IMG/VR virus record: IMGVR_UViG_3300031521_000040
Coordinates: 19,182-83,181 of that record
From: a virus
Reading direction: 5' to 3' (one strand)
DNA length: 64,000 bases
The notes below the pieces were generated by a model that made no database searches, was not told the origin of the DNA, and saw only the letters and a program-made list of their open reading frames with translations. Below, in pieces: positions 46,811-64,000 of this stretch; position 1 is the stretch's first letter; each line of letters starts with the position of its first letter. The translations under genes and the position numbers were made by a program.

Positions 46811-46839
46811 AAATTATTATAAATTATTTTTGAAAATAC

Positions 46840-46882
46840 TTTGCATTTCTTGTAACTTTTACTACCTTTGTTACGTATTTAG
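46840..46882 (+). promoter_or_regulatory. Nested promoters of tRNA array 1
   Basis: TTTG-N19-TACCTTTG; TGTAAC-N17-CGTA; GTATTTAG. Confidence 0.75.
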
Positions 46883-46927
46883 TTATGTCATAATTAATGT
46901 AATTATAATTTTTAAGAAAAAATCAAC

Positions 46928-47002
46928 ATGAAAAATTTAAACAACATACAACAACAACCGCAACAGCATCCACAAATGTCTGAACGGGGAAGTTATGTTT
47001 AA
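46928..47002 (+). CDS. Attenuator leader peptide 1 (MKNLNNIQQQPQQHPQMSERGSYV)
   Basis: 24-aa ORF with a Gln/Pro/His run upstream of the terminator and the Pro/His/Gln tRNAs. Confidence 0.8.
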   Translation: MKNLNNIQQQPQQHPQMSERGSYV

Positions 47003-47029
47003 ATTTATCATGAGTTTAAAGCATTATAG

Positions 47030-47060
47030 AAACCCTGTTCGAAAGTTCAGGGTTTTTTTT
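47030..47060 (+). terminator. Attenuator terminator 1
   Basis: AAACCCTG...CAGGGTTTTTTTT; its 5' arm can alternatively pair with GAACGGGG (46982-46989). Confidence 0.8.
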
Positions 47061-47085
47061 ATGTATATATGTTCTTTGAAAAGTA

Positions 47086-47320
47086 TTGAAGAGGTGACTG
47101 AATGTTAAAGTTAATCAGGTGAAGGAGAGCCTTATGCTGGTAAAGTCAGTGTCTGCAACAAGACACTGGTGACTGCACCGAGGGGTGGGGTGAAATACCC
47201 ACACTGACCTAAAACGAGGCGTAGCACAAAGTATGGTTATTGTTCGGTGTACAACGATAATAATTTGAAATCGACCAACGCCTATCCTCACTCTGTGGGT
47301 TAAAGTCCCACCCTCTTCAA
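47086..47320 (+). ncRNA. Large tRNA-like RNA (about 235 nt)
   Basis: TTGAAGAGG/CCTCTTCAA terminal stem, D-like arm, T-like arm GTGGG-TTAAAGT-CCCAC; about 170 nt structured insert. Confidence 0.6.
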
Positions 47321-47325
47321 AATAT

Positions 47326-47415
47326 CTAGGCGTAGGTCTGTAGTTGGTAGCAGTCCTGTCTTGGAAGCAGGTAGGGTAAAACCTCTCGTCAGTTCGAATC
47401 TGACCGCTTAGACCA
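47326..47415 (+). tRNA. tRNA-Pro(TGG), long variable arm
   Basis: CCTGT-CTTGGAA-GCAGG anticodon arm, GTTCGAATC, encoded CCA. Confidence 0.85.
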
Positions 47416-47423
47416 ATTAATAT

Positions 47424-47495
47424 AGAGTAGTAGCGCAGTGGTAGCGTACATGGTTTGGGACCATGTGGTCGTGGGTTCGAGTCCCACTTACTCTA
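47424..47495 (+). tRNA. tRNA-Pro(TGG)
   Basis: CATGG-TTTGGGA-CCATG; canonical cloverleaf. Confidence 0.92.
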
Positions 47496-47506
47496 CAAGA
47501 TCACAT

Positions 47507-47578
47507 GGGACGATTGGTGTATCGGTAGCACGGAAGTTTGTGAAGCTTTTAGAGTGGGTTCAAACCCCACATCGCCCC
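47507..47578 (+). tRNA. tRNA-His(GTG)
   Basis: GAAGT-TTGTGAA-GCTTT; G-1/C73. Confidence 0.88.
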
Positions 47579-47587
47579 CTAAATTAT

Positions 47588-47659
47588 TGTTGTATAATAC
47601 AATGGTTAGTATAACTGACTTTGAATCAGTTTATTGTGGTTCGAATCCACATACAACAA
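47588..47659 (+). tRNA. tRNA-Gln(TTG)
   Basis: ACTGA-CTTTGAA-TCAGT. Confidence 0.9.
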
Positions 47660-47729
47660 CAAAATATTGTTCGATTTTTTATAAAATGATTCGAACTTTC
47701 ATATGTTTTCAGTATTTATGATAAAACAT

Positions 47730-48299
47730 ATGAAAGAAGAAATATTAAAGTTAAGATCAGAAGGTAAAAAATATTATGAAATACAAAAAGCGTTAAATTG
47801 TTCTAAATCAATTGTTTCGTATTATTGTGGCGTTGCTCAAAAAGACAAATCTCGGAAAAGACAAGCTGAAAATAGAATGAAATGCAACGAAACAACCATT
47901 ATATGTAAAACAACTAATTTCAAATATTGTAGAATTGATAAGTCGAAAAAACTAAGAATTTCATCAACTAGTTTTCAAAAAAGACCTAATAAAATTTATG
48001 AAAAAGATATTACATTAACATTTGATTGGAAGGATGTAATCGATAAATTTGGTGAGGATACTTTTTGTTATTTAAGTGGTGAAAAAATAAACCTTATTAA
48101 TGATAAAAATTATAATCTTGATCATATTGTACCAAAAACCAGAGGTGGCGAAAATAATTTAGAAAATTTAGGAATTCTACATGAAACAGTTAATAAAATG
48201 AAAGGAGCATTGTTGAATGAAGAATTATTTGAGTGGTGTATAAAAATATTGAAGCATAATGGATATGATGTAGTAAAGAATAAAATAATAAACGATTAA
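47730..48299 (+). CDS. HNH endonuclease with N-terminal HTH
   Basis: CYLSG...LDHIVPKTRGGENNLENL...VNKMK; AGTATTTAT at 47711. Confidence 0.85.
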   Translation: MKEEILKLRSEGKKYYEIQKALNCSKSIVSYYCGVAQKDKSRKRQAENRMKCNETTIICKTTNFKYCRIDKSKKLRISSTSFQKRPNKIYEKDITLTFDWKDVIDKFGEDTFCYLSGEKINLINDKNYNLDHIVPKTRGGENNLENLGILHETVNKMKGALLNEELFEWCIKILKHNGYDVVKNKIIND

Positions 48300-48309
48300 A
48301 TATAACAGC

Positions 48310-49128
48310 ATGTATTACATAGTCCAGAAGAACGTCTTTAGAGAAGAAAATTACGATAATTTAATATTGGCTTTAGATCGATTAAAACTATCATACGAAA
48401 TAGTTGATGTACTACCATTTATTGAAACATTCGAGTTTCATTGTAAAGACAAAAATGTGTTTCCTTTTGGGTCAACGAAAATGGCTAGACTGTCTAAGCT
48501 ATATGGCTGGACACCCGGTTCTCAATTGAATGATAATCATGATTATCAGGTGTATAAAAACTTTTATGGTGATAATTTATTGAATTACGATTCACTTATT
48601 TATAAATTCGATGATGAATTTTTTGTTGACAAACCCTTTTTCGCCAGACCAACTAAAGATAGTAAAGCGTTTACTGGTAAGGTATTCGACATGGAAACAT
48701 GGAGAAAATTTAGAAACACTGCCTTAATCAATATACTTGATAAAGATACTGAAATTCAGGTATCATTAGTTAAAGTTATTCAAAAAGAAATAAGATTCTG
48801 GATAGTAAAAGGAAAAATTGCAACTGCAAGTCAATATAAACTAGGAACTAGAGTAGTGCTTAGCGACACCGTAGATCAGCCAGCATATGATTTTTGTAAT
48901 AAAATGATTCAATTGTTTCAATTAAACGATGCATTTGTAATGGATTTGTGTTTGGTTAATGATGAATATAAGATCGTTGAGTGTGGGTGCATTAATTGTG
49001 CTGGTTTCTATCGAGCTGATCTACAGAAATTATTGGTTAAACTAGAAGAAGCATTCTCAAACGATTATTTTGATCGTTGTTATCCGTCATTTTGTAATCC
49101 CATGGATCAAAACTTCTTGCGTTTATAA
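48310..49128 (+). CDS. ATP-grasp protein (R2K-like)
   Basis: FARPTKDSKAFTGKV, EIRFWIVKG, FVMDL, KIVECGCINCAGFY. Confidence 0.75.
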   Translation: MYYIVQKNVFREENYDNLILALDRLKLSYEIVDVLPFIETFEFHCKDKNVFPFGSTKMARLSKLYGWTPGSQLNDNHDYQVYKNFYGDNLLNYDSLIYKFDDEFFVDKPFFARPTKDSKAFTGKVFDMETWRKFRNTALINILDKDTEIQVSLVKVIQKEIRFWIVKGKIATASQYKLGTRVVLSDTVDQPAYDFCNKMIQLFQLNDAFVMDLCLVNDEYKIVECGCINCAGFYRADLQKLLVKLEEAFSNDYFDRCYPSFCNPMDQNFLRL

Positions 49129-49159
49129 AATTTAATAATTACTTTTGCAATAAAACGAT

Positions 49160-49405
49160 ATGAGAGCAGTTGTACCCTGTAATATCGACAATTCTGAAGA
49201 TATTGTCGATACAATAAAATACAATACTATAGGCATTTATGAAGATACAATATCTTCATTCAAAGACTATGTACTACCTGAAAATTCATTAGAACCAACA
49301 ACTACCACAATCTTTTTTCATAAAAGAGAAGATGAACATGGGTTTCTTCAACAAGTTACTATAACAATTAAAACAGAAGTCTTATTAGGATTTCAAAAAT
49401 ATTAA
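49160..49405 (+). CDS. Hypothetical protein
   Basis: 81 aa; TACTTTTG promoter element at 49140. Confidence 0.5.
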   Translation: MRAVVPCNIDNSEDIVDTIKYNTIGIYEDTISSFKDYVLPENSLEPTTTTIFFHKREDEHGFLQQVTITIKTEVLLGFQKY

Positions 49406-49408
49406 TAT

Positions 49409-49873
49409 ATGCAGTACAATCTATATTTAGATGACTTCAGAATGCCATTGGATTCGTTCAATTATACTAACAATAAAATATATAATATTGTTAATTGGAA
49501 GGTTGTGCGTAATTATGATGAATTCGTTGAAGCGATTCTAACTAATGGATTGCCTGAACGAATTTCCTATGATCATGACTTATCATATGAAGATATCAAT
49601 AAAGAAACTGGCTTTACTGAAAAAACTGGCTTGGATTGTGCTAGGTGGCTTATAAACTACTGTATGGATAATAATTTAGATGTGCCAGTTGAAATTTATA
49701 TTCATAGTATGAATACCGTTGGTGCATTAAATATTAAATCATTATTTACTACCTATTATAAGGTATACCCAACCGATAACGACTTTTATATTAATGATGT
49801 CTATATTAAAAACGGATTCTATTCTTATAATTATAGTCGTGGCTTTAATATGTGGAATGAAGATATTTATTAA
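49409..49873 (+). CDS. Cyclic-phosphate-processing receiver-domain protein
   Basis: LYLDDFR, VRNYDEF, ISYDHDL, TGLDCARWL, IHSMNTVG. Confidence 0.8.
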   Translation: MQYNLYLDDFRMPLDSFNYTNNKIYNIVNWKVVRNYDEFVEAILTNGLPERISYDHDLSYEDINKETGFTEKTGLDCARWLINYCMDNNLDVPVEIYIHSMNTVGALNIKSLFTTYYKVYPTDNDFYINDVYIKNGFYSYNYSRGFNMWNEDIY

Positions 49874-49921
49874 GCATGCGTTTTTAAATAAAATAAGTAT
49901 TTATGAAAAAATATATATTTT

Positions 49922-50344
49922 ATGCAAAAAATAGGTAAAGACAGACTTTTCGAAGTCCTAAGTAGGTTAGATAAAACATTCAAACTCATAAATGAAGAAC
50001 AACTACATCATTATAATGATGCTAACGAAACATTTGCACCCGATCAAAATGGCAATGAAGTTACAGATACTGTAAGTCCTGCTACAAGTACAGCACCACT
50101 TAACGAAGATCAATCAGAATCACCTATTCATAAATATGTTTACTTTGCATTTAACTATCCTAATGATTTTATTGAGCAAACATGGGCTGATGATGAAAAT
50201 TTAATGACCCATCTTAAATCTAAATTCCAAGGATATTATAATAAGTATGGTTCAGCTTCAGTAATGAATTATTTTTATACTGAACTTGATGTTCAAAATC
50301 AAAGGAAATTGGATGATTGGATTATTAATAATTATAATGGCTAA
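49922..50344 (+). CDS. Putative internal head protein
   Basis: KDRLFEVLSRLDKTFKLINEE leader; late motif at 49896. Confidence 0.55.
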   Translation: MQKIGKDRLFEVLSRLDKTFKLINEEQLHHYNDANETFAPDQNGNEVTDTVSPATSTAPLNEDQSESPIHKYVYFAFNYPNDFIEQTWADDENLMTHLKSKFQGYYNKYGSASVMNYFYTELDVQNQRKLDDWIINNYNG

Positions 50345-50350
50345 TATGTC

Positions 50351-50560
50351 ATGAATGAACGCAGGGAATATATCAAAGTAGGTAGGAAAGCTTCTAAACG
50401 TGGCGATAGAGCTATAGCTTCTTCTTGTAAATATGATAGCTATTGGACTCAACCTTGTAATAAATATTGGAAAAGACAGGCAAATAAAAAGGTTAGATGC
50501 TCAAATATCATCAATAATATGGGATATAAAAGGATTTATGATAGCTTTTACTGGTCTTAA
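50351..50560 (+). CDS. Small basic protein
   Basis: 69 aa; KYWKRQANKKVR. Confidence 0.5.
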   Translation: MNERREYIKVGRKASKRGDRAIASSCKYDSYWTQPCNKYWKRQANKKVRCSNIINNMGYKRIYDSFYWS

Positions 50561-50613
50561 AACAATTGATATTTAATGAGTTAAAAATTATTATTAATTA
50601 TTTTTAAAAATAC

Positions 50614-50656
50614 TTTGCATTTCTTGTAACATTTTATACCTTTGTTACGTATTTAG
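50614..50656 (+). promoter_or_regulatory. Nested promoters of tRNA array 2
   Basis: Near-identical to 46840-46882. Confidence 0.75.
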
Positions 50657-50724
50657 ATATACAAACAACAATAAGTAATTATTGAAATTTATTAAAAACA
50701 ACGAATATTAAAAACAAAAACGAA

Positions 50725-50814
50725 ATGAAAAATTTACTCGAAACTTTATTAGTAGCAATGGTAGCCGACCTATTATGGTTGGATGCAGAGGATATGTTAT
50801 GTGATGTCGGGTAA
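50725..50814 (+). CDS. Attenuator leader peptide 2 (MKNLLETLLVAMVADLLWLDAEDMLCDVG)
   Basis: 29 aa; 21 residues are L/D/E/V/A/W, matching the downstream tRNAs. Confidence 0.8.
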   Translation: MKNLLETLLVAMVADLLWLDAEDMLCDVG

Positions 50815-50850
50815 AGGAAATAATAATATTGTTCACCTTTCTTTTTATAA

Positions 50851-50884
50851 AAGACCCGACTATTAAAACCAGTCGGGTTTTTTT
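50851..50884 (+). terminator. Attenuator terminator 2
   Basis: AAGACCCGACT...AGTCGGGTTTTTTT; ACCCGAC can alternatively pair with GTCGGGT (50806-50812). Confidence 0.85.
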
Positions 50885-50928
50885 GTTTTAGGTGAATAAG
50901 TTCTTTGACATGCTGGAAAAAATAAAAT

Positions 50929-51008
50929 GGTCTTAGGGTCTGCTGGGCGTGGACGACACCCTGTCACGGTGTTCAATCAGGTCGATTCGAATTCGACTAG
51001 GACCGCCA
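50929..51008 (+). tRNA. tRNA-Asp(GTC)
   Basis: ACACC-CTGTCAC-GGTGT, G73, encoded CCA. Confidence 0.85.
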
Positions 51009-51015
51009 TTAATAC

Positions 51016-51088
51016 AATGCTATAGTTCAATTGGCAGAATAACTGACTGTCTATCAGTGGGTTGCGGGTTCGAGTCCCGTTAGCATTG
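51016..51088 (+). tRNA. tRNA-Asp(GTC)
   Basis: ACTGA-CTGTCTA-TCAGT. Confidence 0.9.
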
Positions 51089-51148
51089 CACGGTTTACTG
51101 GAAGGTAAACTAATCAGAGTTATATAAAACGTGATAAATTAACTCTGA

Positions 51149-51218
51149 AGTCTCGTAGTTTAGAGTGGATATGAATGCCCTGAAGGGGTGGTTGCTGGTT
51201 CAACGCCAGTCGGGACTG
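51149..51218 (+). tRNA. Degenerate tRNA, anticodon undetermined
   Basis: Acceptor, D and T arms present; anticodon arm shortened (GCCC-TGAAG-GGGT). Confidence 0.5.
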
Positions 51219-51228
51219 CTTTTAAAAT

Positions 51229-51303
51229 GTTGCCGTTGATAAATTGGCGAAATCACCTGACTTTCAATCAGGTCATATGTGGGTTCAAGTCCCATCGGCA
51301 ATA
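51229..51303 (+). tRNA. tRNA-Glu(TTC)
   Basis: CCTGA-CTTTCAA-TCAGG. Confidence 0.88.
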
Positions 51304-51309
51304 CAATAT

Positions 51310-51382
51310 GTCGCTATATGCTAATTGGCTAGGCAATAACACCTTCACTGTTATGGTGTGAGTTCGATCCTCACTAGCGATA
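51310..51382 (+). tRNA. tRNA-Glu(TTC)
   Basis: TAACA-CCTTCAC-TGTTA. Confidence 0.8.
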
Positions 51383-51403
51383 CAATTTTTAAATAAAAAC
51401 GTT

Positions 51404-51541
51404 ATGAAACCATTAAAAAGAAAATTAACCTCAACTGAATTTAGTAAAAAGCAAGAGAACGCAGCTAATTACGGAAAATTCATTAAAACAACTTTAGTTG
51501 AAAGAGGTAAACAGAGAAACATTTTCAAAATTAAGAACTGA
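51404..51541 (+). CDS. Small basic ORF (45 aa) inside the tRNA array
   Basis: MKPLKRKLTSTEFSKKQENAANYGKFIKTTLVERGKQRNIFKIKN. Confidence 0.4.
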   Translation: MKPLKRKLTSTEFSKKQENAANYGKFIKTTLVERGKQRNIFKIKN

Positions 51542-51599
51542 TAACATATAAGCGGTTAATAGCCTGTGAGACATTAACGGCTAATATATTATTACTTAT

Positions 51600-51674
51600 G
51601 TTCCCTTAGCTTAGCTGGTTTAAAGCACTTCTCCTACAAAGAAGATACCGTTGGTTCAAATCCAACAGGGAACA
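51600..51674 (+). tRNA. tRNA-Val(TAC)
   Basis: CTTCT-CCTACAA-AGAAG. Confidence 0.88.
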
Positions 51675-51741
51675 CAAAACATAACAATAAGTGTTTTCGC
51701 TTATATTCATATTTAATAAGCGAAAACACTTGTAAATATAT

Positions 51742-51823
51742 CCTTTTGTGGTGGAATTGGTATACACGGCAGCCCAAGAAACTGTTGTCGAAGGACATGC
51801 GAGTTCAAATCTCGCCAAGAGGA
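51742..51823 (+). tRNA. tRNA-Leu (AAG by register; class II)
   Basis: Leu-type D arm GTGGAATTGGTATACAC, GCAGC-CCAAGAA-ACTGT, long variable arm. Confidence 0.75.
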
Positions 51824-51989
51824 CTGAGATGTAATATGGTAATAAAGACGATGGCTGAGTGAGGCTATAGCGTGTCCAAAGCGCCAATAGACCACCAGAG
51901 GTTAACTCCCGATGCAATATCTGGCAACCTCACTCCCATATTACGGAAAGATGAATTATCGTCTGGAGATTCCAGACGGAAAATAATAT

Positions 51990-52064
51990 GCTGGTGTAGC
52001 CGAATGGTAAATAGGCAACTGACTTAGGATCAGAAATTTGCGAGTTCGAGTCTCGCCACCAGTA
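51990..52064 (+). tRNA. tRNA-Leu(TAG), short variable arm
   Basis: CTGA-CTTAGGA-TCAG. Confidence 0.82.
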
Positions 52065-52069
52065 CATTT

Positions 52070-52158
52070 GGGGATGTGATGAAATTGGTAGCACATGACA
52101 AGCTTAAACCTTGTTGCGAAATAATAGTAGCGTGTCAGTTCGAGTCTGACCTTCCCTA
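52070..52158 (+). tRNA. tRNA-Leu(TAA)
   Basis: ACAAG-CTTAAAC-CTTGT, long variable arm. Confidence 0.88.
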
Positions 52159-52169
52159 CTGAAATACAT

Positions 52170-52241
52170 GGGGTGTGAAGTGTAATTGGCTGCACAAAAC
52201 ATTTGCAATGTTTTAGAGGGGTTCAAGTCCCACACGCTCCA
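52170..52241 (+). tRNA. tRNA-Ala(TGC)
   Basis: AAACA-TTTGCAA-TGTTT; G3:U70 pair. Confidence 0.85.
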
Positions 52242-52305
52242 CAAGAAATTTTGAGTTCATTCAATCTTTTCTCCACAATTAAAGTATTTATGATAAAATA
52301 TTATT

Positions 52306-53097
52306 ATGAATATATGTAAAAATTGTGGAATTGAAATCGAATCACATCGTAAATATTGTTCATTGAGATGTAGAAATATATATGTTAATGAAAATCTTAG
52401 AAACTATAGTAAAAACGGTGATTCTATTAGCAAAAAATTTGTTGATGAATATAATTCACATCCAAAAAAATGTAAAGCATGTGATAAAATTATACCATAT
52501 GCGCTAAGGGAATGGGTTTTTTGTTCTAAAGAATGTAAAAAAACTGGATTAATTAAGTGGAATGAAAATCGAAAAGGCGAAAAGCGTAGTTTTAGTAAAG
52601 AAGGAATTGATAATATTATTATAGCAAGACGATTAAGATTAGATACTAGTTTTGAGGATTACATGTCTAATCCGAAACTTTGTAAAGAATGTGGTGAAAA
52701 ATTGCCGTTTGACCATAAAGCACGAATTTTCTGTAATATTAAATGTAAACGAATTTATGATAGTAAAAACATATCCGAATATCAAATTTATTATAAAAAT
52801 TGTCAGTTTAAATTTAATTTATCTAACTATCCAGAAGAATTTAATTTCGATATGATAAATGAATATGGTTGGTATAAAGCAAAAAATCATGGTGATAATT
52901 TAAATGGTATTAGTCGTGACCATATGATTTCAGTAAAATATGGTTATGAAAATAATATTAGCTCAGATATTATTTCTCACCCTGCTAATTGCAAACTAAT
53001 GCCACATAGTAGTAATTCAAAGAAACATAGTAACTGTTCGCTTAGCTTAGAAAACTTGCTACTAAAAATCAATGAATGGAATTTAAAATATTATTAG
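52306..53097 (+). CDS. HNH-like endonuclease with Zn-finger repeats, inserted in the tRNA array
   Basis: Three CxxC...(Y/F)C..C modules; SRDHMIS...HPANC.LM....NSKK; late motif at 52283. Confidence 0.75.
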   Translation: MNICKNCGIEIESHRKYCSLRCRNIYVNENLRNYSKNGDSISKKFVDEYNSHPKKCKACDKIIPYALREWVFCSKECKKTGLIKWNENRKGEKRSFSKEGIDNIIIARRLRLDTSFEDYMSNPKLCKECGEKLPFDHKARIFCNIKCKRIYDSKNISEYQIYYKNCQFKFNLSNYPEEFNFDMINEYGWYKAKNHGDNLNGISRDHMISVKYGYENNISSDIISHPANCKLMPHSSNSKKHSNCSLSLENLLLKINEWNLKYY

Positions 53098-53135
53098 AAA
53101 TAAATAAAATCGTCTGGAAATTCCAGACAAAACAT

Positions 53136-53218
53136 ACGTAAGTTGCCGAGTGGTTAAAGGCGGTGGTCTCCAAAACTACTAGAGAAATCTTTCGTGGGTT
53201 CGAATCCTACCTTACGTG
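53136..53218 (+). tRNA. tRNA-Trp(CCA), long variable arm
   Basis: GTGGT-CTCCAAA-ACTAC; G73. Confidence 0.85.
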
Positions 53219-53240
53219 CTTGATAATCAACAAGTTATAT

Positions 53241-53314
53241 AGCCCTATATGCCAACTGGTAGAGTGAGGTGTTTCAAACGCATCGTAGTGAGAGTTCGAA
53301 TCTCTCTAGGGCTA
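53241..53314 (+). tRNA. tRNA-Leu(CAA), short variable arm
   Basis: GGTGT-TTCAAAC-GCATC. Confidence 0.75.
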
Positions 53315-53403
53315 CATTTAGTCATCGGGAATCTCCAGATGAAATTAATTTAATATTTTTGTAACATTTCGCTATAGTTATACGTATAATAATTAAAATA
53401 TTC

Positions 53404-54171
53404 TTGCTTATTATTATCATTATCATTACTTTTAACAAAAATTATCACATGTATATTATTTCAAATAAGAAAAAAGATTATTATGATGGCGTTGCTGGTA
53501 CAGTAGGCATTGATAAAACCATTGTATATAATCGTCAGCAAATTGAAATAGGTGAAAAGGACTTACCTTCTTTATTTAAAGTTGATATACATAATCATAA
53601 CAATTCTTCATTCACCAAATTGGATGCTTATCACATTAAAGATGAATATTCTAAAGATTTTTTTAATTATTCATGTGATATTATTGGATTTTGTGGTAAG
53701 ATTTATTTTTGTTGGAATTTCTATTATAAGAAATATAATAGGTTTACGCATGCTGATGAAACAGTTACTCATATTACATATGATATTACTGAAGCTAAGG
53801 ATATTTTAACAGATAAAAACTATTATGGTAATCTTGCTGACAATATCAACGATGTTCTAAATTATGATGCAATGCATTTGTTTAGAGAATTTAAAACACC
53901 TGTATTTGTTTATTCAGATGACCCACATGATTCGGTTTTGCTTGATAGGCGCAGATATAGATGGGCAAAAAAGATCATATTGAATCCAATATTAAATGAT
54001 TTCAACTTCTATTCTGAGTTTGATTCATTTCAAGCATTTCAAGAAATTCAGATGTTTATCGGTGGCGTACTAGGTTGTAATGAAAAAGATATTATTGAAG
54101 TTGCTGATAAATATAAGATTGCGCAGCACGGATTTGATAAATTTAGTTTTAGAAAGGATAAGGAAAAATGA
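53404..54171 (+). CDS. Conserved phage hypothetical protein (likely start near 53449)
   Basis: KKDYYDG...FQAFQEIQMFIGGVL...KIAQHGFDK.SFR. Confidence 0.6.
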   Translation: MLIIIIIITFNKNYHMYIISNKKKDYYDGVAGTVGIDKTIVYNRQQIEIGEKDLPSLFKVDIHNHNNSSFTKLDAYHIKDEYSKDFFNYSCDIIGFCGKIYFCWNFYYKKYNRFTHADETVTHITYDITEAKDILTDKNYYGNLADNINDVLNYDAMHLFREFKTPVFVYSDDPHDSVLLDRRRYRWAKKIILNPILNDFNFYSEFDSFQAFQEIQMFIGGVLGCNEKDIIEVADKYKIAQHGFDKFSFRKDKEK

Positions 54172-54913: not shown

Positions 54914-55076
54914 TGAAAAAAACTGAAAAGATATTACTGGCGCTTAAGGCAGACAGAAGATTAAATGATACTCATTGTACTTTAAACAACTGTTCACCTT
55001 CACAATATATGCAAGGTAGTAATAAAATATTGGATGATTACATTATATATGTAGAAAATTTAATAAATAAGAAATA

Positions 55077-55364: not shown

Positions 55365-55368
55365 TATT

Positions 55369-56581: not shown

Positions 56582-57018
56582 GAAAAATTACAGTGATAAT
56601 TGAAGATGGGTTCAATACTTTAAGTCAAACAATTAAATGTGATGCCATTTGCTTTGCAGCATCAGGTGTTGGTGCATTAAGCAGTCATTTAAATCATGAA
56701 ATGAATATGCTTATTGAGTCTCAAAAGGATTGGATTGCTGAAGAGCCAAAAGATTGTAAATTTGTCATAGCGTGTAGATATAGTGATGTAATTGCATGTG
56801 GTATTGATACATCGTTTGATGCTTTATGTGTATACATTGGTGAACATTTCAATAATGTATGCAAGAGAAATCCTAGCTATTCAGATAAATATACAAAAGA
56901 AGAGCATAAGAAATTTTGGTATCATTTATTAGAAGTAAATGAAAGTGAATGTGAAAATTTAATGAGAGATCACATTGATAATGCTCATGAAAATAAATGG
57001 TTTCATTATAGTGCTTAA
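56578..57018 (+). CDS. Hypothetical protein
   Basis: 146 aa ORF. Confidence 0.5.
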   Translation: MRKITVIIEDGFNTLSQTIKCDAICFAASGVGALSSHLNHEMNMLIESQKDWIAEEPKDCKFVIACRYSDVIACGIDTSFDALCVYIGEHFNNVCKRNPSYSDKYTKEEHKKFWYHLLEVNESECENLMRDHIDNAHENKWFHYSA

Positions 57019-57027
57019 ACTAATATT

Positions 57028-57480
57028 ATGAACGAAGAAAGCTGGAAAACACTAAATAAATTCCATGATGATCTAATAATTGCAATTGAAGAATATGAAA
57101 ATTCTCCTGAAGGCAAGACAGCTAATGCATGGAAGAAATATCTTGAAGAATTTCAAGAAGAACGGTTTCAACAATTTGAAAAATGGTTAGAACATAACGA
57201 TTTTGATAAATTGATATATCGTTTAATATCGGAACATGATGCTGACTATCGTGATAGCTGGTATGAAAGAGGTATTGAGCCACAGCCGAATAATAAACTA
57301 CAATTTTTACTCGATTATGTTGATAATAGGTGTAAAATAACTAACGTGAAAAAGCTTGATTGTGGGTTCAACAACCAAATACGATTATTTAAGGGTTATT
57401 ACTTTCAAACAACACATGGTCAAGGGACTGTTACTGATATCTATAACAAAAAGAAACTGCAACACTTATTACACGTATGA
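57028..57480 (+). CDS. Hypothetical protein
   Basis: 150 aa ORF. Confidence 0.5.
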   Translation: MNEESWKTLNKFHDDLIIAIEEYENSPEGKTANAWKKYLEEFQEERFQQFEKWLEHNDFDKLIYRLISEHDADYRDSWYERGIEPQPNNKLQFLLDYVDNRCKITNVKKLDCGFNNQIRLFKGYYFQTTHGQGTVTDIYNKKKLQHLLHV

Positions 57481-57785
57481 AAATATATAATAAATTAGTT
57501 CGTGATAAGATATTGAAAATATTGAAAAAAGCTGGTGTAAAGCATAAATATCATATTGCTGATGATGCTGAATACTATACTAAACTTCACGATAAACTAC
57601 AAGAGGAAATTCAAGAATTTGTTGAAAACCCATGTATGGAAGAATTTGCTGATATTTTGGAAGTATTAGAAGCTATTGGTAAATATCATAAACTTGATTT
57701 TGGTGAAATTAAAACAATAAAAGGAATTAAACAAATTGAACGTGGTGCATTCTATAATAAAATAATTTTAGAATCTACAGATTAA
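57477..57785 (+). CDS. MazG/HisE-like all-alpha NTP pyrophosphohydrolase
   Basis: YNKLVRDKI, KLQEEIQEF, EEFADILEV, ERGAF. Confidence 0.8.
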   Translation: MKIYNKLVRDKILKILKKAGVKHKYHIADDAEYYTKLHDKLQEEIQEFVENPCMEEFADILEVLEAIGKYHKLDFGEIKTIKGIKQIERGAFYNKIILESTD

Positions 57786-57790
57786 AATAT

Positions 57791-57878
57791 GGGGGTGTGA
57801 TGAAATTGGTAAACATAACAGACTTAAAATCTGTCGGTTAGCTTAAGCGCCTTGAGGGTTCAAGTCCCTCTACCCCTA
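57791..57878 (+). tRNA. tRNA-Leu(TAA)
   Basis: ACAGA-CTTAAAA-TCTGT, long variable arm. Confidence 0.9.
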
Positions 57879-58076
57879 CAAACCTAAATGAAATGAAAGC
57901 TAAACCAAAAGAAGATGATTGTAATTGTGGTAAACCATTGAAATTAGATGATCCACGAAAGAAAGCATTAGAAGCAAAAAAAATTATTAAGAAAAGAAAT
58001 CTACTTAAATAAAAGTATTTATTATTATGAAAAAACTATGGGAATTCTTGTAACGCTCTAATGCGTATACGGGATT

Positions 58077-58364
58077 ATGAGAAATAAAGAAACTATGGAT
58101 GCCACTGACAATCGTGGCGTATTCAATCGTGCATACAAGGAATATCTTGAGCACAAAGGAAAAATTCATTGCAGCTATTGCAAATATCATAAGGGTGAAA
58201 ATTACAAGGGTAATAGCTATGGAGGATATGGGAAAGTTAAGCTTCCTAATTGGAAGCTAGTATCGAAGAACCCTAAACAATGGATGAAAAAACCGATGAA
58301 AATCGTTGAAAAACCAACACATCACCCAATGTATAATATGTTTTATACTGAAATCAAATTTTAG
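58077..58364 (+). CDS. Small basic hypothetical protein
   Basis: CSYCKYH; 95 aa. Confidence 0.5.
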   Translation: MRNKETMDATDNRGVFNRAYKEYLEHKGKIHCSYCKYHKGENYKGNSYGGYGKVKLPNWKLVSKNPKQWMKKPMKIVEKPTHHPMYNMFYTEIKF

Positions 58365-58372
58365 TATAATAT

Positions 58373-58443
58373 GCGGATATCGTTCAAAGGTAGGACTGCT
58401 CCCCCATAAAGAGTAGATATGAGTTCGATTCTCATTATCCGTA
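58373..58443 (+). tRNA. tRNA with CAT anticodon (Met or Ile2), atypical
   Basis: GCTCC-CCCATAA-AGAGT; intact acceptor and T arms. Confidence 0.65.
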
Positions 58444-58447
58444 CAAA

Positions 58448-58906
58448 TTAAAATGTAACTGAGCAGATATTGGTTTTAAAATCAAAATCTAAGCCAGATA
58501 CATACAATCCACCACCTGTGTTTAAAACAGCATCACCTACATTGAATTTCCAAGGCTGTTCCGCTATGTTTTTATCTGTTTCATTTTCTAATGCATCGGT
58601 ATGCTTATTGTAGGATGCGAGCTTATATGTTCCCTCTACACCGTCTATTGATATAATGAAGTTCTCAACGCCAAAGTCATTCAACCAAAACGAAATATGC
58701 CAACTAATAAAAATATCACTATCATTGATGTCTGCATCAAAATCTGATGAAAATACTTCGTAATTAAAAAATGTTGAATCTTTTATTTCTTGACGAAATC
58801 TAAAATTATCGTTTTCCATTACAAAACCTTCGTTAAGAAATTTTTTAATCTCTTCATTAAGAATTGTATCTATGTTTTTTCCAGCGTTTAATGTTTTAAA
58901 ACTCAT
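58448..58906 (-). CDS. Hypothetical protein
   Basis: ILNEEIKKFLNE N-terminal motif; late motif at 58921. Confidence 0.55.
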   Translation of the reverse strand: MSFKTLNAGKNIDTILNEEIKKFLNEGFVMENDNFRFRQEIKDSTFFNYEVFSSDFDADINDSDIFISWHISFWLNDFGVENFIISIDGVEGTYKLASYNKHTDALENETDKNIAEQPWKFNVGDAVLNTGGGLYVSGLDFDFKTNICSVTF

Positions 58907-58980
58907 GTCAGTATTTTTCTATAAATACACTATGATTGTTAAAAATTCTTCATTATATTTGCAACATAATATATTGAAGT

Positions 58981-59995
58981 ATGATTGAAAGCAATGAAGT
59001 GTTTGTAAATGAAAAACATTGGCGAAGTATGAGTGAAAATGAATTAAGTGCATTGCATTAAAGATTTTCTCTTATTATAGAGAACATGGATTTCCATATT
59101 ACCCAACTGATAATGAAATAAGAAGAAAAGATTTTAATAAGCTTAAAAACTTTAACTTTCATAATGCACAGGATAGGGCAGTAATAAATCAAACAATGCA
59201 TGGACTTGGTTTAGCTTGGTCATATTTTCCACATGCTTTTGATGTTAAATCTAATGGTATGATGACTCCTTATGAGGCATTCATGAATGATGAAATATTT
59301 ATGAAAGTCATATTGAAAAGATTGAAGATGGGAACATATATTTCTGATTCTGGTATAAGAAAAATGTTAAAAATTTATACTGGTGTTCAAGGAGTATCTA
59401 ATTTCAGACCAACAGCAGCAGCGTGTTTATATGATGAATTTGGAAAAGATGGTGTCGTGTGGGATATGTCTGGCGGATGGGGTGGTAGATTGCTTGGCGC
59501 AGCTATTAGCAACGTTAATAAGTATATAGCTACCGAACCTTCGACTAAAACATTTAATGGTCTTAAATCGCTTGCAAATGACTTTTCTGGCAATATGATA
59601 TGTGAAATCAATCATTGTGGTAGTGAAGATTATGTTCCCGAAGTGAATAGTTTGGATATGTGTTTTACATCGCCACCATATTTTGATCTGGAACAATACT
59701 CAAGCGAATCAACACAAAGCTATATTAAATTTAATAATATTGAAAAATGGAGAGAAGGTTTTTTAAAACCAACATTTGATAATTGTTACTATGGACTAAA
59801 ACCTGAAAAATTCATGTTAATCAATATTTCAGATAAGGTTGGTAACAATATTAAGCTTGAAGATATTACAATTGAAACAGCAAAAGAAGTTGGATTTACA
59901 ATGTATGAAAATACTGGCTTGCTCTTTCAAATATAAATTTAATGGATAGTGGAATAAAATTTAAATATGAACCAATATATATTTTTAAAAAATGA
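58981..59995 (+). pseudogene. Amino-DNA methyltransferase with two apparent frameshifts
   Basis: WDMSGGWGGRLLG (SAM binding), FTSPPYF; frames shift near 59053 and 59908. Confidence 0.75.
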
Positions 59996-60051
59996 TCATT
60001 TTATGGTTGTAAAAAATATGAAGAGTATTTATATCTATAAAACTATATGGC

Positions 60052-60996
60052 ATGGGAAAAAAATGTTTTTTTGAAGAAAATGAAATTATTGATATTATTA
60101 AAAAATACACTATTGAAAACCTGAGTTGTGAAAAAATTGGAATTTTATATAATGTTTCATCGACCACCATATCACGAAACCTTAAAAAAAATAAAATTGA
60201 AATTAAAAAATGTAATGAGTATAAAAAATACACAGTAAATGAAGAATTTTTAAAAAATGTTAATGGTATTAATTCATATTTTATTGGGTTAATGGCATCG
60301 GATGGAAATGTTAAAAAGAATTTCAGGTGTTTTTCAATATCACAGTCAGGTATAAACGGCATGAAATTGATTGAGCAAATTTCTAATTGGTTAGCATATT
60401 CAGGGAAAATTTATCATGCAAGAACGTCATGTAAAATATCACATGGAATTACTATTACTTCGGAAAAATTGGTTTCCGAAGTAATCAAACACAATATAGT
60501 GCCAAATAAATCAGCAATATTCTATTATAATAATTTAGCCTTATTAAAAGAGTTTTTACAGGGATATGTTGACGGAGATGGATGTGTTGGCATTTACAAA
60601 AAAAACGGAAAAAATTACTATTATATTAGTTTTTTTGGTACTACAAAATTTATGAAAAGTATTATTTCATTAATTCCGATAATACCTACTTGTTATAAGA
60701 TAAATGAAAACTATCATGAAATTAAGTTTTTTGGTAAAAAGGGTATTGATTTCAGTAATTGGCTATGGGAATATCCAGTATATAGCGATAGTATAAAATA
60801 TAAAAAATATGTTTTATTTAAAGCCAATGAATACCTTAACAGTGAAAAATATCAATATAATAAACTAAATATTGATATTATGAATATGTTGGATAAAAAT
60901 TTTACAGTAAAAGAAATTTGTGATAAGCACAATATTAATAAAAGAACAGTTTATAATTTAAAATATAATAAAAAAAATGGAAGAGGTACTTACTAA
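60052..60996 (+). CDS. LAGLIDADG homing endonuclease
   Basis: YFIGLMASDGNV and FLQGYVDGDGCV; late motif at 60024. Confidence 0.88.
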   Translation: MGKKCFFEENEIIDIIKKYTIENLSCEKIGILYNVSSTTISRNLKKNKIEIKKCNEYKKYTVNEEFLKNVNGINSYFIGLMASDGNVKKNFRCFSISQSGINGMKLIEQISNWLAYSGKIYHARTSCKISHGITITSEKLVSEVIKHNIVPNKSAIFYYNNLALLKEFLQGYVDGDGCVGIYKKNGKNYYYISFFGTTKFMKSIISLIPIIPTCYKINENYHEIKFFGKKGIDFSNWLWEYPVYSDSIKYKKYVLFKANEYLNSEKYQYNKLNIDIMNMLDKNFTVKEICDKHNINKRTVYNLKYNKKNGRGTY

Positions 60997-62062
60997 AATC
61001 GATTGGAATGTATTAAATACTTATATTGAAAATAATTTAATTGTATCAAATAAACATCCAGAATATGATATTTGGATACTAAATTATTCGCCAAAGGCAC
61101 AGTCAAAAAAGTTTTGGGATGAATACACCATGTCCTGTAGAGGCTTAGTTGTAGATATTGATGGTAATATAATTAGCCGATGTATGAAAAAGTTCAAAAA
61201 TTATGAAGAACATGATCCATCGGAAATTGATATGTTACAGTCATTCGAAATTTTCGAAAAGATGGACGGGTCAATGATTTCTGTTTTTTGGTACGATGCA
61301 CGTAACGAATGGATTGTAGCCAGCAGGGGGTCTTTTATTTCGGAACAGTCTGTGGAAGCCAGAAAAATACTGAGTAATAAATCTGTTTACTTGGAAAAAA
61401 ATAATACATATATTTTCGAGGTAATATATCCTGAAAATCAGATAGTTGTCCACTACAATGGAATTCGTAGCTTAGTACTACTTACTGTTATTGAAACTAA
61501 GTCAGGCATCGAAGCACCATATGATAATGTATTAAATAACTATGTTGATTATTTTACTATCGTTAAGAAATATGATATTAAGAATATCAACAACTTAAAC
61601 GATTTAAAAATACTTGAAGAAGAAAATCATGAAGGTTTTGTTGTGAAATTTGCCGATGGATTCCGAGTTAAAGTAAAATTTAATGAATACATCCGATTGC
61701 ATGGTATTTTAACTAATGTTTCAAATGTTGTAGTTTGGGAACACTTAATGAATAACTATAACTTTGATCTATTATTAGATAGAGTTCCTGATGAATTTTA
61801 TGACTGGTTGAGAAGAACAGTGGGATCGCTACAATTGCAATATAATGATATTGAACGATTGGCTTTGAAGGATTTTATCAGAATTTATCATATAAATAAT
61901 ATATCAGATCGTAAAGCATTCGCAATGGAAGCTATAAAAACAGAACATCGTTCGATATTGTTTAGACTTTATGACAAAAAGCCATATGATGTATTAATCT
62001 GGAAACAAATTCGACCTGTATTTTCGAAGCCATTCAAAGATGGCTATGAATATGTTTCATAA
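60977..62062 (+). CDS. RNA ligase (T4 Rnl1-like)
   Basis: CRGLV, KKFKNY, EKMDGS (motif I), ASRGSF, FEVIYP, EGFVV, VKVKFNEY. Confidence 0.9.
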   Translation: MEEVLTKIDWNVLNTYIENNLIVSNKHPEYDIWILNYSPKAQSKKFWDEYTMSCRGLVVDIDGNIISRCMKKFKNYEEHDPSEIDMLQSFEIFEKMDGSMISVFWYDARNEWIVASRGSFISEQSVEARKILSNKSVYLEKNNTYIFEVIYPENQIVVHYNGIRSLVLLTVIETKSGIEAPYDNVLNNYVDYFTIVKKYDIKNINNLNDLKILEEENHEGFVVKFADGFRVKVKFNEYIRLHGILTNVSNVVVWEHLMNNYNFDLLLDRVPDEFYDWLRRTVGSLQLQYNDIERLALKDFIRIYHINNISDRKAFAMEAIKTEHRSILFRLYDKKPYDVLIWKQIRPVFSKPFKDGYEYVS

Positions 62063-62097
62063 AAAACGGTCATGCTGCAGAGTATGACCGTTTTTTT
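62062..62097 (+). terminator. Intrinsic terminator
   Basis: AAAAAACGGTCATGCT-GCAG-AGTATGACCGTTTTTT. Confidence 0.75.
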
Positions 62098-62122
62098 AGT
62101 ATTTATAAGAAAATCAAATACT

Positions 62123-62914
62123 ATGAAACCATTCACCTACTTAAAAAAATTATTTAAAAAAAAGAAAACAATCAAATTCGGGTGGAAAAAAGATAATCTA
62201 GACCCAAGAGACATTAAATTTAAAATTGAACAACAACACGCATTACCGCCGATGGTTGATTTAAGATCCTATTGTCCACCTGTTTATGATCAGGGTAATA
62301 TAGGTAGTTGTACTGCAAATTCATTGGCTGCTGCTTATCAGTTTGAGGAAATGAAACAAAAGGGTGAAAATTTTATCCCATCAAGATTATTTATCTATTA
62401 TAATGAAAGAGCATTAGAAGGAAATGTCAATACTGATAGTGGTGCTGCAATCAGAGACGGCATTAAAACAATGGTTACTGATGGCGTATGTCCTGAAACA
62501 ATATGGAAATATAGCCCAAATAAATTTGCAATAAAACCAACTAAAGAATGTTATGATGCTGCATTAAATAATCAGGTTGTAGAGTATTTAAGAATTACTC
62601 CACATAATTTATATGAAGTTAAACATTGCATTTCTGATGGTTATCCAGTTGTATTTGGTTTCATGATCTATGAATCATTTATGGATGCAGAAGTTGCACG
62701 TACTGGTATTGCGCCTATGCCTAAATCTAATGAAATATTACAAGGCGGACATGCTGTTCTTGCTGTTGGATATGATGACTCAATGGAAGCGTTAATTGTT
62801 AGAAATAGTTGGGGAAGTGATTGGGGCATTGATGGCTATTTTTATCTTCCATATGGGTTTGTTACTGAAGAAAACTTATCTGCCGATTATTGGACAATCA
62901 GATTGGTTGAGTAG
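62123..62914 (+). CDS. Papain-like cysteine protease (C1A)
   Basis: DQGNIGSCTAN, GGHAVLAVGY, RNSWG; start behind the late motif at 62098. Confidence 0.9.
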   Translation: MKPFTYLKKLFKKKKTIKFGWKKDNLDPRDIKFKIEQQHALPPMVDLRSYCPPVYDQGNIGSCTANSLAAAYQFEEMKQKGENFIPSRLFIYYNERALEGNVNTDSGAAIRDGIKTMVTDGVCPETIWKYSPNKFAIKPTKECYDAALNNQVVEYLRITPHNLYEVKHCISDGYPVVFGFMIYESFMDAEVARTGIAPMPKSNEILQGGHAVLAVGYDDSMEALIVRNSWGSDWGIDGYFYLPYGFVTEENLSADYWTIRLVE

Positions 62915-63023
62915 TATTTATATGCACGAATTAAATATTTTGTTAAATTAAACGATTTGGCTAATTCGTGCATTATCTTTGTACAAAATCTAATACAGTA
63001 TTCATTAAACATATAAACTAAAT

Positions 63024-63365
63024 ATGAGAAATATCTTTGAAATCATCAATGAAGAGATTGACACATTAAATATCAATAGCCAACAGAATAACAATCCAGA
63101 ACCTGATTATGGTTGGGCTATCTTTAGAATAGCAAACGGACATAAATATTATGTTATTAAAATAGATACGCAGTCTGATAAAATTATTATGTATGATAGC
63201 GGTGTTAAGTATTCGGATAGAAAAGTATTGAAGTTTTCGGAAAAAAGAGCAGCACAAATAATAAAAAAGAACATGAATGTTGATAAAAAATATGGAATTG
63301 TCAACAGTAGAGGTGTTCAAAAACTGTATGATTGGAGTATTCGTTACGATAATGGCTTAAGCTAG
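63024..63365 (+). CDS. Hypothetical protein
   Basis: IFEIINEEI N-terminal motif. Confidence 0.5.
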   Translation: MRNIFEIINEEIDTLNINSQQNNNPEPDYGWAIFRIANGHKYYVIKIDTQSDKIIMYDSGVKYSDRKVLKFSEKRAAQIIKKNMNVDKKYGIVNSRGVQKLYDWSIRYDNGLS

Positions 63366-63414
63366 TGTTGATAATCAACCAGTTAAAAATAAATGAAAAA
63401 TAATTGCAATTTTT

Positions 63415-63458
63415 TGTAACATTTTGCTTGTCTAATACGTATTTATGGTATATCTTTG
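63415..63458 (+). promoter_or_regulatory. Nested promoters of tRNA array 3
   Basis: TGTAAC-N17-CGTA, GTATTTAT, TATCTTTG. Confidence 0.7.
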
Positions 63459-63489
63459 TTAAATAAAACAAATAATAACAAAACAAACA

Positions 63490-63582
63490 ATGAGAACATT
63501 TGGTAAAACATATCGTGGTTATAAATCTTATAAGAAAACTCTTATGGAATCGGGATTGCTTTGTCAAATAAAAACAACTTAA
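63490..63582 (+). CDS. Attenuator leader peptide 3 (MRTFGKTYRGYKSYKKTLMESGLLCQIKTT)
   Basis: 30-aa ORF; codons 2-17 encode only R/T/F/G/K/Y/S. Confidence 0.75.
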   Translation: MRTFGKTYRGYKSYKKTLMESGLLCQIKTT

Positions 63583-63610
63583 AATAGTTTAATAGCATTT
63601 AGACATTATC

Positions 63611-63644
63611 AAAAACCCCGATTCATTAGAGTCGGGGTTTTTTT
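63611..63644 (+). terminator. Attenuator terminator 3
   Basis: AAAAACCCCGATTC-ATTA-GAGTCGGGGTTTTTTT; CCCGATTC can alternatively pair with GAATCGGG (63547-63554). Confidence 0.85.
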
Positions 63645-63845
63645 GTTCTTTAAAATATTGATGAAATGAAAGTTGTTTGAAATTATTATTGAAAGTCTGA
63701 AGGAAACTACATGGGAGACATACGCAATCGTGAGATAAAAAACGTGAGCAGTGGAAGGCGCTGACAGGCACAGAAGTTAAGAAATGTATTAGTAGATCAA
63801 ATCAGTATGTAATGAGATTAGAATGACGAGTAATCACACTAACGG

Positions 63846-63933
63846 GATATCTGTAGCTCAGTCAGGTAGAGCAGGAGACAGCGTTTGCGTATTAGAAACT
63901 CCGTGTCATAGGTTCAAATCCTATCTGGTGTCA
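63846..63933 (+). tRNA. tRNA-like gene with an expanded (about 21 nt) anticodon loop
   Basis: TAGCTCAGTCAGGTAGAGC D arm, GGAG...CTCC stem, ATAGG-TTCAAAT-CCTAT T arm. Confidence 0.6.
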
Positions 63934-63955
63934 TAAACCGTTGGTGTGTAATTTT

Positions 63956-64000
63956 GCCTTCGTAGCTCAATAGGTAGACGCACCTGACTTTTAATCAGGG
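63956..64000 (+). tRNA. tRNA-Lys(TTT), truncated by the window edge
   Basis: CCTGA-CTTTTAA-TCAGG. Confidence 0.85.

Follow-up and report, generated by a model that had tools for sequence, protein, structure and literature searches.

A 64,000-nucleotide stretch of viral DNA from the IMG/VR record IMGVR_UViG_3300031521_000040 (positions 19,182 to 83,181 of that record, one strand; hereafter, the window) contains three cassettes in which transfer RNA (tRNA) arrays are probably controlled by multivalent, ribosome-mediated leader-peptide transcription attenuators, such that stalling of the ribosome on a short leader open reading frame (ORF) would result in read-through into the tRNA genes. The three cassettes (46840–47082, 50614–50918, and 63414–63655, all on the plus strand) each consist, in this order, of a promoter block, a 24–30-codon ORF, an intrinsic terminator, a boxA-like motif, and a tRNA array; this identical architecture, claimed in a preliminary description of the same DNA, was borne out by reading the regions and locating the motifs. 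The strongest evidence for attenuation, as far as sequence comparison can tell, comes from related phages, in which the leaders track the changes in the arrays across lineages.

Leader composition and array content

The leader ORF of cassette 1 (46928–47002, plus strand; 24 codons followed by TAA) contains nine consecutive Gln, Pro, or His codons (codons 8–16, 46949–46975, QQQPQQHPQ), and the array behind it (47326–47660, plus strand) consists of a long Pro(tgg)-like gene, predicted by ARAGORN only, followed by Pro(tgg), His(gtg), and Gln(ttg), that is, Pro, Pro, His, and Gln. Leader 2 (50725–50814, plus strand; 29 codons followed by TAA) is composed mostly of Asp, Glu, Val, Leu, Ala, Trp, and Met (23 of the 28 codons after the start). 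It precedes an array (50929–53315, plus strand) of two Asp, two Glu, Val, Leu(aag), Leu(tag), Leu(taa), Ala, Trp, and Leu(caa) genes, with four Leu isoacceptors and one ORF inside (52306–53097); further downstream lie Leu(taa) (57791–57879) and Met (58373–58444), with no terminator detected in between. When random peptides were drawn from the phage's own amino-acid usage, the observed precision with full recall was reached by 4 of 200,000 for leader 1 and by none of 200,000 for leader 2. Likewise, among the 400 short ORFs (20–45 codons) found in six-frame translation of the contig, the leaders themselves included, at most four match array 1 and one matches array 2 equally well. All three anticodons of array 1 and all 10 of array 2 have a cognate codon in the respective leader.

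The third leader (63490–63582, plus strand; 30 codons followed by TAA) contains Tyr at positions 8, 11, and 14 and Lys at positions 6, 12, 15, 16, and 28, and is assigned to a Lys/Tyr class because homologous leaders in four relatives (G001–G004) precede arrays of Lys and Tyr tRNAs only. Its own array starts at 63847 (63847–64000, plus strand) with an aberrant tRNA-like gene (63847–63932), followed by a tRNA-Lys(TTT) gene from 63957 that is cut by the contig end. The proposal in the preliminary description that each leader matches its array accordingly stands for cassettes 1 and 2 and not in full for cassette 3, where Arg, Thr, Phe, Gly, and Ser have no counterpart in the arrays behind homologous leaders.

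Relatives were collected by scanning IMG/VR with the promoter block and with a boxA-like 19-mer, and the tRNA regions of five complete genomes (G001–G005, contigs of 325–349 kb rated complete by CheckV) were added. The promoter block heads tRNA cassettes at 43 IMG/VR loci, and altogether 65 distinct cassettes with the same layout, leader ORF included, were identified in related phages. Each of the five complete genomes encodes four leader/array classes that jointly cover all 20 amino acids: class A, with a QPQPQQHPQ-like leader core and a Pro/His/Gln array; class B, with a LDILMVALEAVLLWDAED-like leader and an Asp/Glu/Val/Leu/Ala/Trp (Met) array; class D, with a YYYGKKSYKK-like leader and a Lys/Tyr array; and class C, with a leader rich in Thr, Asn, Ile, Phe, Ser, Arg, Gly, and Cys and a Thr/Cys/Ile/Ser/Phe/Gly/Asn/Arg/Met array. 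The gene order of the classes in the complete genomes is A, B, D, C, and the window shows A, B, and D, leader 3 being of class D; the class C cassette of this phage should therefore lie beyond the contig end. The class C arrays of G001–G004 (L045, L048, L049, and L051) end with a tRNA of anticodon CTA (labeled 'Pyl' by ARAGORN), that is, of the amber-suppressor type, a hint that TAG may be read through or recoded in these relatives.

In 23 of 24 representative cassettes, the leader holds every amino acid of its array, and when leaders and arrays were re-paired at random across 18 representatives, none of 20,000 permutations reached the observed score. At the level of isoacceptors, 178 of 187 array anticodons pooled over 18 cassettes are covered by a leader codon, whereas synonymous shuffles cover 160.7 on average and never more than 174 (0 of 2000 as good), with the qualification that related cassettes share ancestry, so that pooled P values overstate independence and significance, and that the lineage-specific partitions of the code form the independent part of the evidence.

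These partitions are followed closely. In G002, the CUN-reading Leu(tag), Leu(aag), and Leu(gag) genes are found in array C instead of array B, and the codons CTA and CTC occur only in the class C leader of that genome. A Pro/His/Gln array that gained Arg(acg) and Arg(tcg) (L065) is preceded by a leader that gained CGT codons. In one lineage (L079, L107, L099, and L101), the code is split over two arrays, and the two leaders match that split; in another (L061 and its relatives), a single array for 19 amino acids without Pro is preceded by a single 32-codon leader with 19 amino acids, again without Pro. In yet another cassette (L084), a Thr/Ala/Pro/Gln/Gly/Arg leader precedes a Thr/Gly/Ala/Gln/Pro/Arg array. 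The covariation between leader codons and downstream anticodon sets that the preliminary description anticipated in related jumbo phages is thus found, both in the pooled counts and in the partitions.

Antiterminator pairing and switch geometry

The terminators are G+C-rich hairpins followed by a run of seven or eight T, 29–40 nt past the leader stop: AACCCTG/CAGGGTT and T8 in cassette 1 (47031–47060; −12.8 kcal/mol for the hairpin alone), ACCCGACT/AGTCGGGT and T7 in cassette 2 (50854–50884), and CCCCGATTC/GAGTCGGGG and T7 in cassette 3 (63616–63644), all on the plus strand. In each case, a plus-strand segment of the leader ORF can pair with the terminator 5' arm: GAACGGGG (46982–46989) with CCCTGTTC (47033–47040); GTCGGGT (50806–50812), which overlaps the last two codons and the stop, with ACCCGAC (50854–50860); and GAATCGGG (63547–63554), 26 nt before the stop, with CCCGATTC (63617–63624). 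All three pairings quoted in the preliminary description are present, the first one with a single G·U pair. When the folded leader sequence ended at the terminator loop, with the 3' arm not yet transcribed, the terminator 5' arm paired with the ORF-end strand in most cassettes, and when a ribosome was masked at the stop, the terminator alone formed; folding with and without the ribosome footprint thus yields the mutually exclusive antiterminator and terminator expected under the earlier proposal. In some class A leaders, Pro/Gln codons (CCCCA) can in addition pair with the antiterminator strand (TGGGG) in a trp-like 1:2 helix.

The antiterminator helix is preserved through compensatory changes in relatives. 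Across 21 class B leaders, 79.5% of its positions are paired, compared to 25–46% in slid controls, with five pairs changed on both sides and a covariation score of 0.141 versus 0.062 in shuffles (0 of 500 shuffles reach the score). The informative pairs (GCAG/CTGC, GTAG/CTAC, GGAG/CTCC, and TCAG/CTGA) are located on the loop side of the terminator, outside its stem, and therefore belong to the antiterminator only; in one sequence, all three strands have changed together (GTCGAG/CTCGAC/GTCGAG). The class A alignment is 88.6% paired and includes a UA↔CG compensatory exchange. In class D, 8 bp are kept in all six sequences, with one GC→AU compensatory change and slid controls at 11–56%, and the covariation among these six sequences is not significant by itself (74 of 500 shuffles); RNAalifold on class D predicts the terminator only, with no conserved 1:2 helix. 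The pair counts cover classes A, B, and D; the class C alignment was too poor at the arms, and one of its rows was mis-referenced. The compensatory changes looked for in relatives thus are apparent in classes A and B, and weak in class D. Altogether, the trp/his-type attenuation logic put forward in the preliminary description fits the start context of the leaders, the placement of their codons, the folds, the compensatory changes, and the tracking of arrays by leaders.

Signs of leader translation

Several features suggest that the leader frame is read. Codons of the array set account for 0.72 of class B codons in frame 0 compared to 0.20 and 0.13 in the other frames, and for 0.84 of class C codons compared to 0.33 and 0.42. 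Variable columns mostly swap within the array set (67% in-set residues in class B and 84% in class C), as expected if selection acts on codon class and not on the peptide sequence. The start context of the leaders lacks a Shine-Dalgarno sequence, is A-rich, and resembles that of the long ORFs of the phage: the 20 nt preceding the leader start codons of the window comprise 55–75% A (55% in leader 1) versus 47% for long ORFs and 35% for the genome. Such A-rich contexts without a Shine-Dalgarno sequence fit translation initiation in Bacteroidota.

Proposed sequence of events

Under the attenuation reading, the conserved promoter block would initiate transcription, and the short leader ORF would be engaged by a ribosome. 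When the matched codons are decoded fast, the ribosome would arrive at the end of the ORF and cover or separate the antiterminator strand, so that the terminator would form and transcription would stop before the array. Conversely, scarcity of a charged tRNA would slow decoding of any matched codon, the ribosome would stall upstream, and the antiterminator strand and the terminator 5' arm would pair, allowing RNA polymerase to read through. The polymerase would then encounter a host-type boxA, probably recruiting rrn antitermination factors, and would transcribe the whole untranslated array along with the interspersed genes. The products of the array would be the very tRNAs sensed, and each cassette would therefore constitute a closed negative-feedback loop on one tRNA set. 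The geometry says that an upstream stall would lead to antitermination and arrival at the stop to termination; modeled in this way, the switch is clear in classes A–C and less tidy in the Lys/Tyr class.

Alternative explanations

Several observations weigh against the attenuation reading. The antiterminator strand of class D lies 8–10 codons before the stop and is not covered by a ribosome at the stop, so that an extra element, either 1:2-type pairing or steric separation, must be assumed; in the model, a ribosome that terminates there would keep the two strands apart instead of masking one. Some codons are too near the antiterminator to serve as sensors, and some leader residues fall outside the array set (Met-Lys at the start; Thr, Cys, and Gly in leader 2; Arg, Thr, Phe, Gly, and Ser in leader 3). 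One Tyr-only class D array with a terminator (G005, L054/L055) is preceded by no ATG-initiated ORF of at least 12 codons, and in one class B cassette (L005), the leader frame is intact with ATA, and no ATG, at the expected start. Taken by itself, the window gives no significant match at the isoacceptor level: synonymous shuffles succeed in 85% and 38% of the trials for cassettes 1 and 2 (P = 0.85 and 0.38, respectively), and any claim of isoacceptor tuning therefore has to draw on the pooled cassettes. A generic promoter and terminator scan yielded no enrichment; on the plus strand, terminators 1 and 2 (with loops longer than 8 nt) were missed, and only terminator 3 was found. To these points, the inflation of pooled P values by shared ancestry, mentioned above, has to be added. 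Finally, translation of the leaders, regulated termination, and the direction and size of the response to tRNA supply are all inferred indirectly, from the sequence.

Some of these observations would be compatible with leaders that are translated and gate the terminator, while acting as a general gauge of translation capacity that responds to any slowing of ribosomes or works through protection of nascent RNA from Rho. The multivalence of the leaders, the lineage in which a single 19-amino-acid leader serves a single array, and the lack of a significant codon-level match in the window alone point in this direction; however, such a gauge would not need four leaders per genome with nearly exclusive compositions that track four arrays, nor would it account for the mirroring of array changes in leaders (the Leu tRNAs moved in G002 and the Arg tRNAs gained in L065) or for the outcome of the pairing permutations, and we consider it unlikely. 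Reverse polarity, whereby smooth translation of the leader would cause read-through and stalling would cause termination, so that the arrays are on only when tRNAs are plentiful (feed-forward), could be argued from the extension of the Lys/Tyr-class ORF by 8–10 codons beyond the antiterminator strand and from the last regulatory codons of several leaders, which lie no more than a ribosome footprint away from this strand. It appears quite improbable, given that most matched codons come before the antiterminator strand and that this strand sits at the stop in classes A–C; a stalled ribosome would therefore free it and a terminating ribosome would mask it, which is the his/trp geometry.

The remaining two alternatives dispense with leader translation. 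The terminators might be ordinary ends of upstream genes and the small ORFs chance frames, with the array promoters located downstream of the terminators; the lack of enrichment in the generic scan and the abundance of short ORFs in AT-rich DNA (the 400 in this contig) would be in line with this explanation. Against it, very few of those 400 ORFs match the arrays as well as the leaders do (at most four for array 1 and one for array 2), 65 cassettes show conservation and covariation of the ORFs, with their frame and composition, and of the antiterminator pairing, and the conserved promoter block is found ahead of every leader and not behind the terminator; there is very little chance that this explanation is correct. 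Complementarity between leader codons and array anticodons would also be expected of a ribosome-independent, T-box-like switch, to which tRNAs bind by codon–anticodon pairing with the leader RNA. We give this possibility the least credence of all: the matched triplets fall in one frame, set by the ATG and the stop; up to 19 different 'specifiers' are present with no conserved scaffold; and in 46800–53400, only tRNA families come near the curated Rfam thresholds, a permissive Rfam search of this region having produced no match to the T-box or another leader family at E ≤ 1 (tRNAs and sub-threshold chance matches only).

boxA, host assignment, and relationships of the phage

A GTTCTTTGA-type, boxA-like motif is located between the terminator and the tRNA genes in all three cassettes: GTTCTTTGAAAA at 47071–47082, GTTCTTTGACATGCTGGAA at 50900–50918, and two motifs in cassette 3 (63645–63682), namely, GTTCTTTAAAA at 63645–63655 and GTTGTTTGAAA at 63672–63682, all on the plus strand. 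The 19-mer following terminator 2 has exact matches at at least 120 bacterial genome loci, nearly all from Bacteroidota; about 55 of these lie after 16S-tRNAIle-tRNAAla, where the motif precedes the 23S rRNA by 36–50 nt, and none was found within 1.5 kb upstream of a 16S start. The short form following terminator 1 precedes the 16S rRNA by 83–133 nt in the same Bacteroidota operons. The positions before 16S and before 23S are the two canonical ones for boxA (PMC10250234). The phage boxA is letter-identical to the Bacteroidota rrn motif, which fixes the predicted host phylum as Bacteroidota. It also suggests that polymerases that have passed the attenuator become termination-resistant in the manner of rrn transcription, which would suit kilobase-long untranslated arrays; Nus factors would be expected to bind at this site.

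The window covers the final 64 kb of one contig of 83,181 bp with 30.7% G+C and encodes phage capsid, portal, terminase, and tail proteins; the runs listed as containing the stretch are all DNA runs, labeled as peat metagenome, with no RNA run among them. Given that the complete relatives have genomes of 325–349 kb, this contig probably represents part of a jumbo phage genome. A megablast search with 46000–54000 produced no match among cultured phages, and the best identity of TerL to cultured phages is only about 26%, with the best E-value coming from Flavobacterium phages.

Other features of the cassettes and their neighborhood

The promoter block has the form TTGTAAC-N16-ACGTATTTA, beginning at 46850, 50624, and 63414 in the three cassettes, and about 45–70 nt separate it from the leader ATG. 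In cassette 1 (46840–46881, plus strand), the block comprises TTTG (46840–46843), TTGTAAC (46850–46856), TACCTTTG (46863–46870), and ACGTATTTA (46873–46881); in cassette 2 (50614–50655, plus strand), TTGTAAC (50624–50630), TACCTTTG (50637–50644), and ACGTATTTA (50647–50655) are found; in cassette 3 (63414–63445, plus strand), TTGTAAC-N16-ACGTATTTA is present. The blocks of cassettes 1 and 2 include TTTG-N19-TAnnTTTG, which is the −33/−7 promoter form of Bacteroidota. A fourth copy with one mismatch (ACGTATATA; 13515–13546, minus strand) directly precedes a protein-coding gene (12972–13508, minus strand), with no leader or terminator; hence, the block is a general phage promoter or operator that is not specific to tRNA cassettes.

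The first genes of the arrays start at 47326, 50929, and 63847, and each is an atypical, longer tRNA-like gene (47326–47415, 50929–51008, and 63847–63932). ARAGORN predicts the 90-nt Pro(tgg) and the 80-nt Asp(gtc) gene, both of which score below the Rfam threshold, and the 86-nt first gene of array 3 has either a 21-nt anticodon loop or a 12-nt insert; with introns allowed, ARAGORN calls it a Leu(tag) gene with a 12-nt insert, a call that we do not trust. These genes could be functional variants, decoys, or pseudogenes. Between the boxA and the first tRNA of array 1, there is a G+C-richer stretch of 243 nt (47083–47325) that folds with a minimum free energy of −77.3 kcal/mol (z = −3.83) and a long-range closing helix. 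The relative G003 (L050) has a sequence of 90% identity at the corresponding place, and no Rfam family matches the stretch; it is a structured RNA, presumably co-transcribed with array 1.

Array 1 is followed by genes for an HNH endonuclease (47703–48299), an R2K-clade ATP-grasp protein (48310–49128), and a cREC_REC cyclic-phosphate-processing receiver (49409–49873). Cassette 3 is preceded by genes for a LAGLIDADG/HTH protein (60052–60996), a T4 Rnl1-like RNA ligase (60977–62062), and a papain-like peptidase C1 (62072–62914). Elsewhere in the window, the DNA helicase ORF (in 16437–18983) carries a LAGLIDADG-endonuclease-like insert, possibly an intein, at residues ~319–387, and the ORF after the capsid gene (19860–21653) joins a Mom-like domain to a GIY-YIG endonuclease.

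Discussion

The purpose of phage tRNA genes has long been debated, the candidates being codon compensation and escape from tRNA-targeting defense (PMC10264068, PMC11555353), and phage defense has been documented to target the tRNAs for Lys and Tyr (PMC12409363, PMC11555353). The regulation of these genes has so far been essentially unknown. For the attenuators described here, the preliminary description suggested anticodon-nuclease defense or starvation as the trigger, which remains a conjecture; tRNA cleavage by host defense, a mismatch in codon usage, or host tRNA decaying in the late phase of infection might act in this way. The RNA-repair neighbors of the arrays, together with the targeting of Lys and Tyr tRNAs, favor a counter-defense role without proving it; in T4, Rnl1 restores the tRNA-Lys that the anticodon nuclease PrrC has cleaved. 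More tentatively, and with the odds somewhat against it, the cassettes might be conceived of as a codon-resolved tRNA homeostat that spans the code, in which a few attenuators read all 20 amino acids, and largely each isoacceptor, to activate only the tRNA block in short supply, with the help of host rrn signals and of the co-located Rnl1-like ligase, R2K ATP-grasp, and cREC_REC proteins, as a dedicated counter-defense against anticodon nucleases and other tRNA-depleting immunity.

If the attenuation reading is correct, the phage monitors decoding speed set by set and replenishes only the tRNAs that run short, the 'tRNA depletion' hypothesis becomes directly testable, and classical attenuation extends to RNA genes and to Bacteroidota. 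Such elements would also give synthetic biology a compact and programmable means of reading out how well individual tRNAs are supplied. Moreover, leader composition is a sequence signature that predicts array content on incomplete contigs.

Full-text searches of the literature yielded no account of leader-peptide control of tRNA genes. What is new here is the tRNA-gene target with its closed loop on tRNA supply, as well as the breadth, with as many as 19 amino acids in one leader and the whole code covered within one genome. The occurrence in phages and in a Bacteroidota context is likewise new, as is the link with boxA.

In enterobacteria, multivalent leader-peptide attenuators include the thr leader (Thr and Ile) and the ilvGMEDA leader (Leu, Val, and Ile), and others are found in front of trp, his, leu, and pheA. 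The phage elements, as read from sequence, resemble them in having a short leader rich in regulatory codons, an intrinsic terminator, an exclusive antiterminator that depends on ribosome position, and several amino acids per leader. To our knowledge, all described leader-peptide attenuators regulate genes for amino-acid biosynthesis or aminoacyl-tRNA synthetases; the genes regulated here are instead tRNA arrays, so that the sensed molecule would be the gene product itself. The phage leaders further differ in reading up to 9–19 amino acids, with several cassettes partitioning the whole code, and in being phage-borne, with Bacteroidota-type promoter contexts and translation without a Shine-Dalgarno sequence, and with a boxA behind. 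The pheST and other aminoacyl-tRNA synthetase attenuators, as well as T-boxes, similarly place genes of the translation apparatus under the charging or availability of cognate tRNA through a choice between terminator and antiterminator. T-boxes, however, bind one uncharged tRNA directly, without a ribosome, and find no match in the phage region analyzed, whereas pheST senses one amino acid and regulates a protein-coding gene.

With respect to boxA, the likeness to rrn antitermination (boxA with NusB/NusE, NusA, NusG, and SuhB; PMC10250234) consists in a boxA that heads a long untranslated RNA operon; the difference is that the phage boxA follows a regulated terminator and hence would act only on polymerases that are past the attenuator. 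The nearest published case appears to be the trn operon (L-array) of Anabaena sp. PCC 7120, which is cryptic and induced under translational stress (PMC8421152, PMC10272220). Its accessory tRNA array is normally silent and is switched on when translation falters, as would hold for the phage cassettes; furthermore, rtcB, an RNA-repair gene, is co-regulated with it, and the phage arrays are adjoined by RNA-ligase and repair-linked genes. The control of the Anabaena operon is different, being exerted through direct repeats over the −10 element and transcription start site and the repressor TrcR, with no attenuation or leader peptide mentioned in these reports (PMC8421152, PMC10272220), whereas the phage arrays would be governed by the ribosome that reads the leader.

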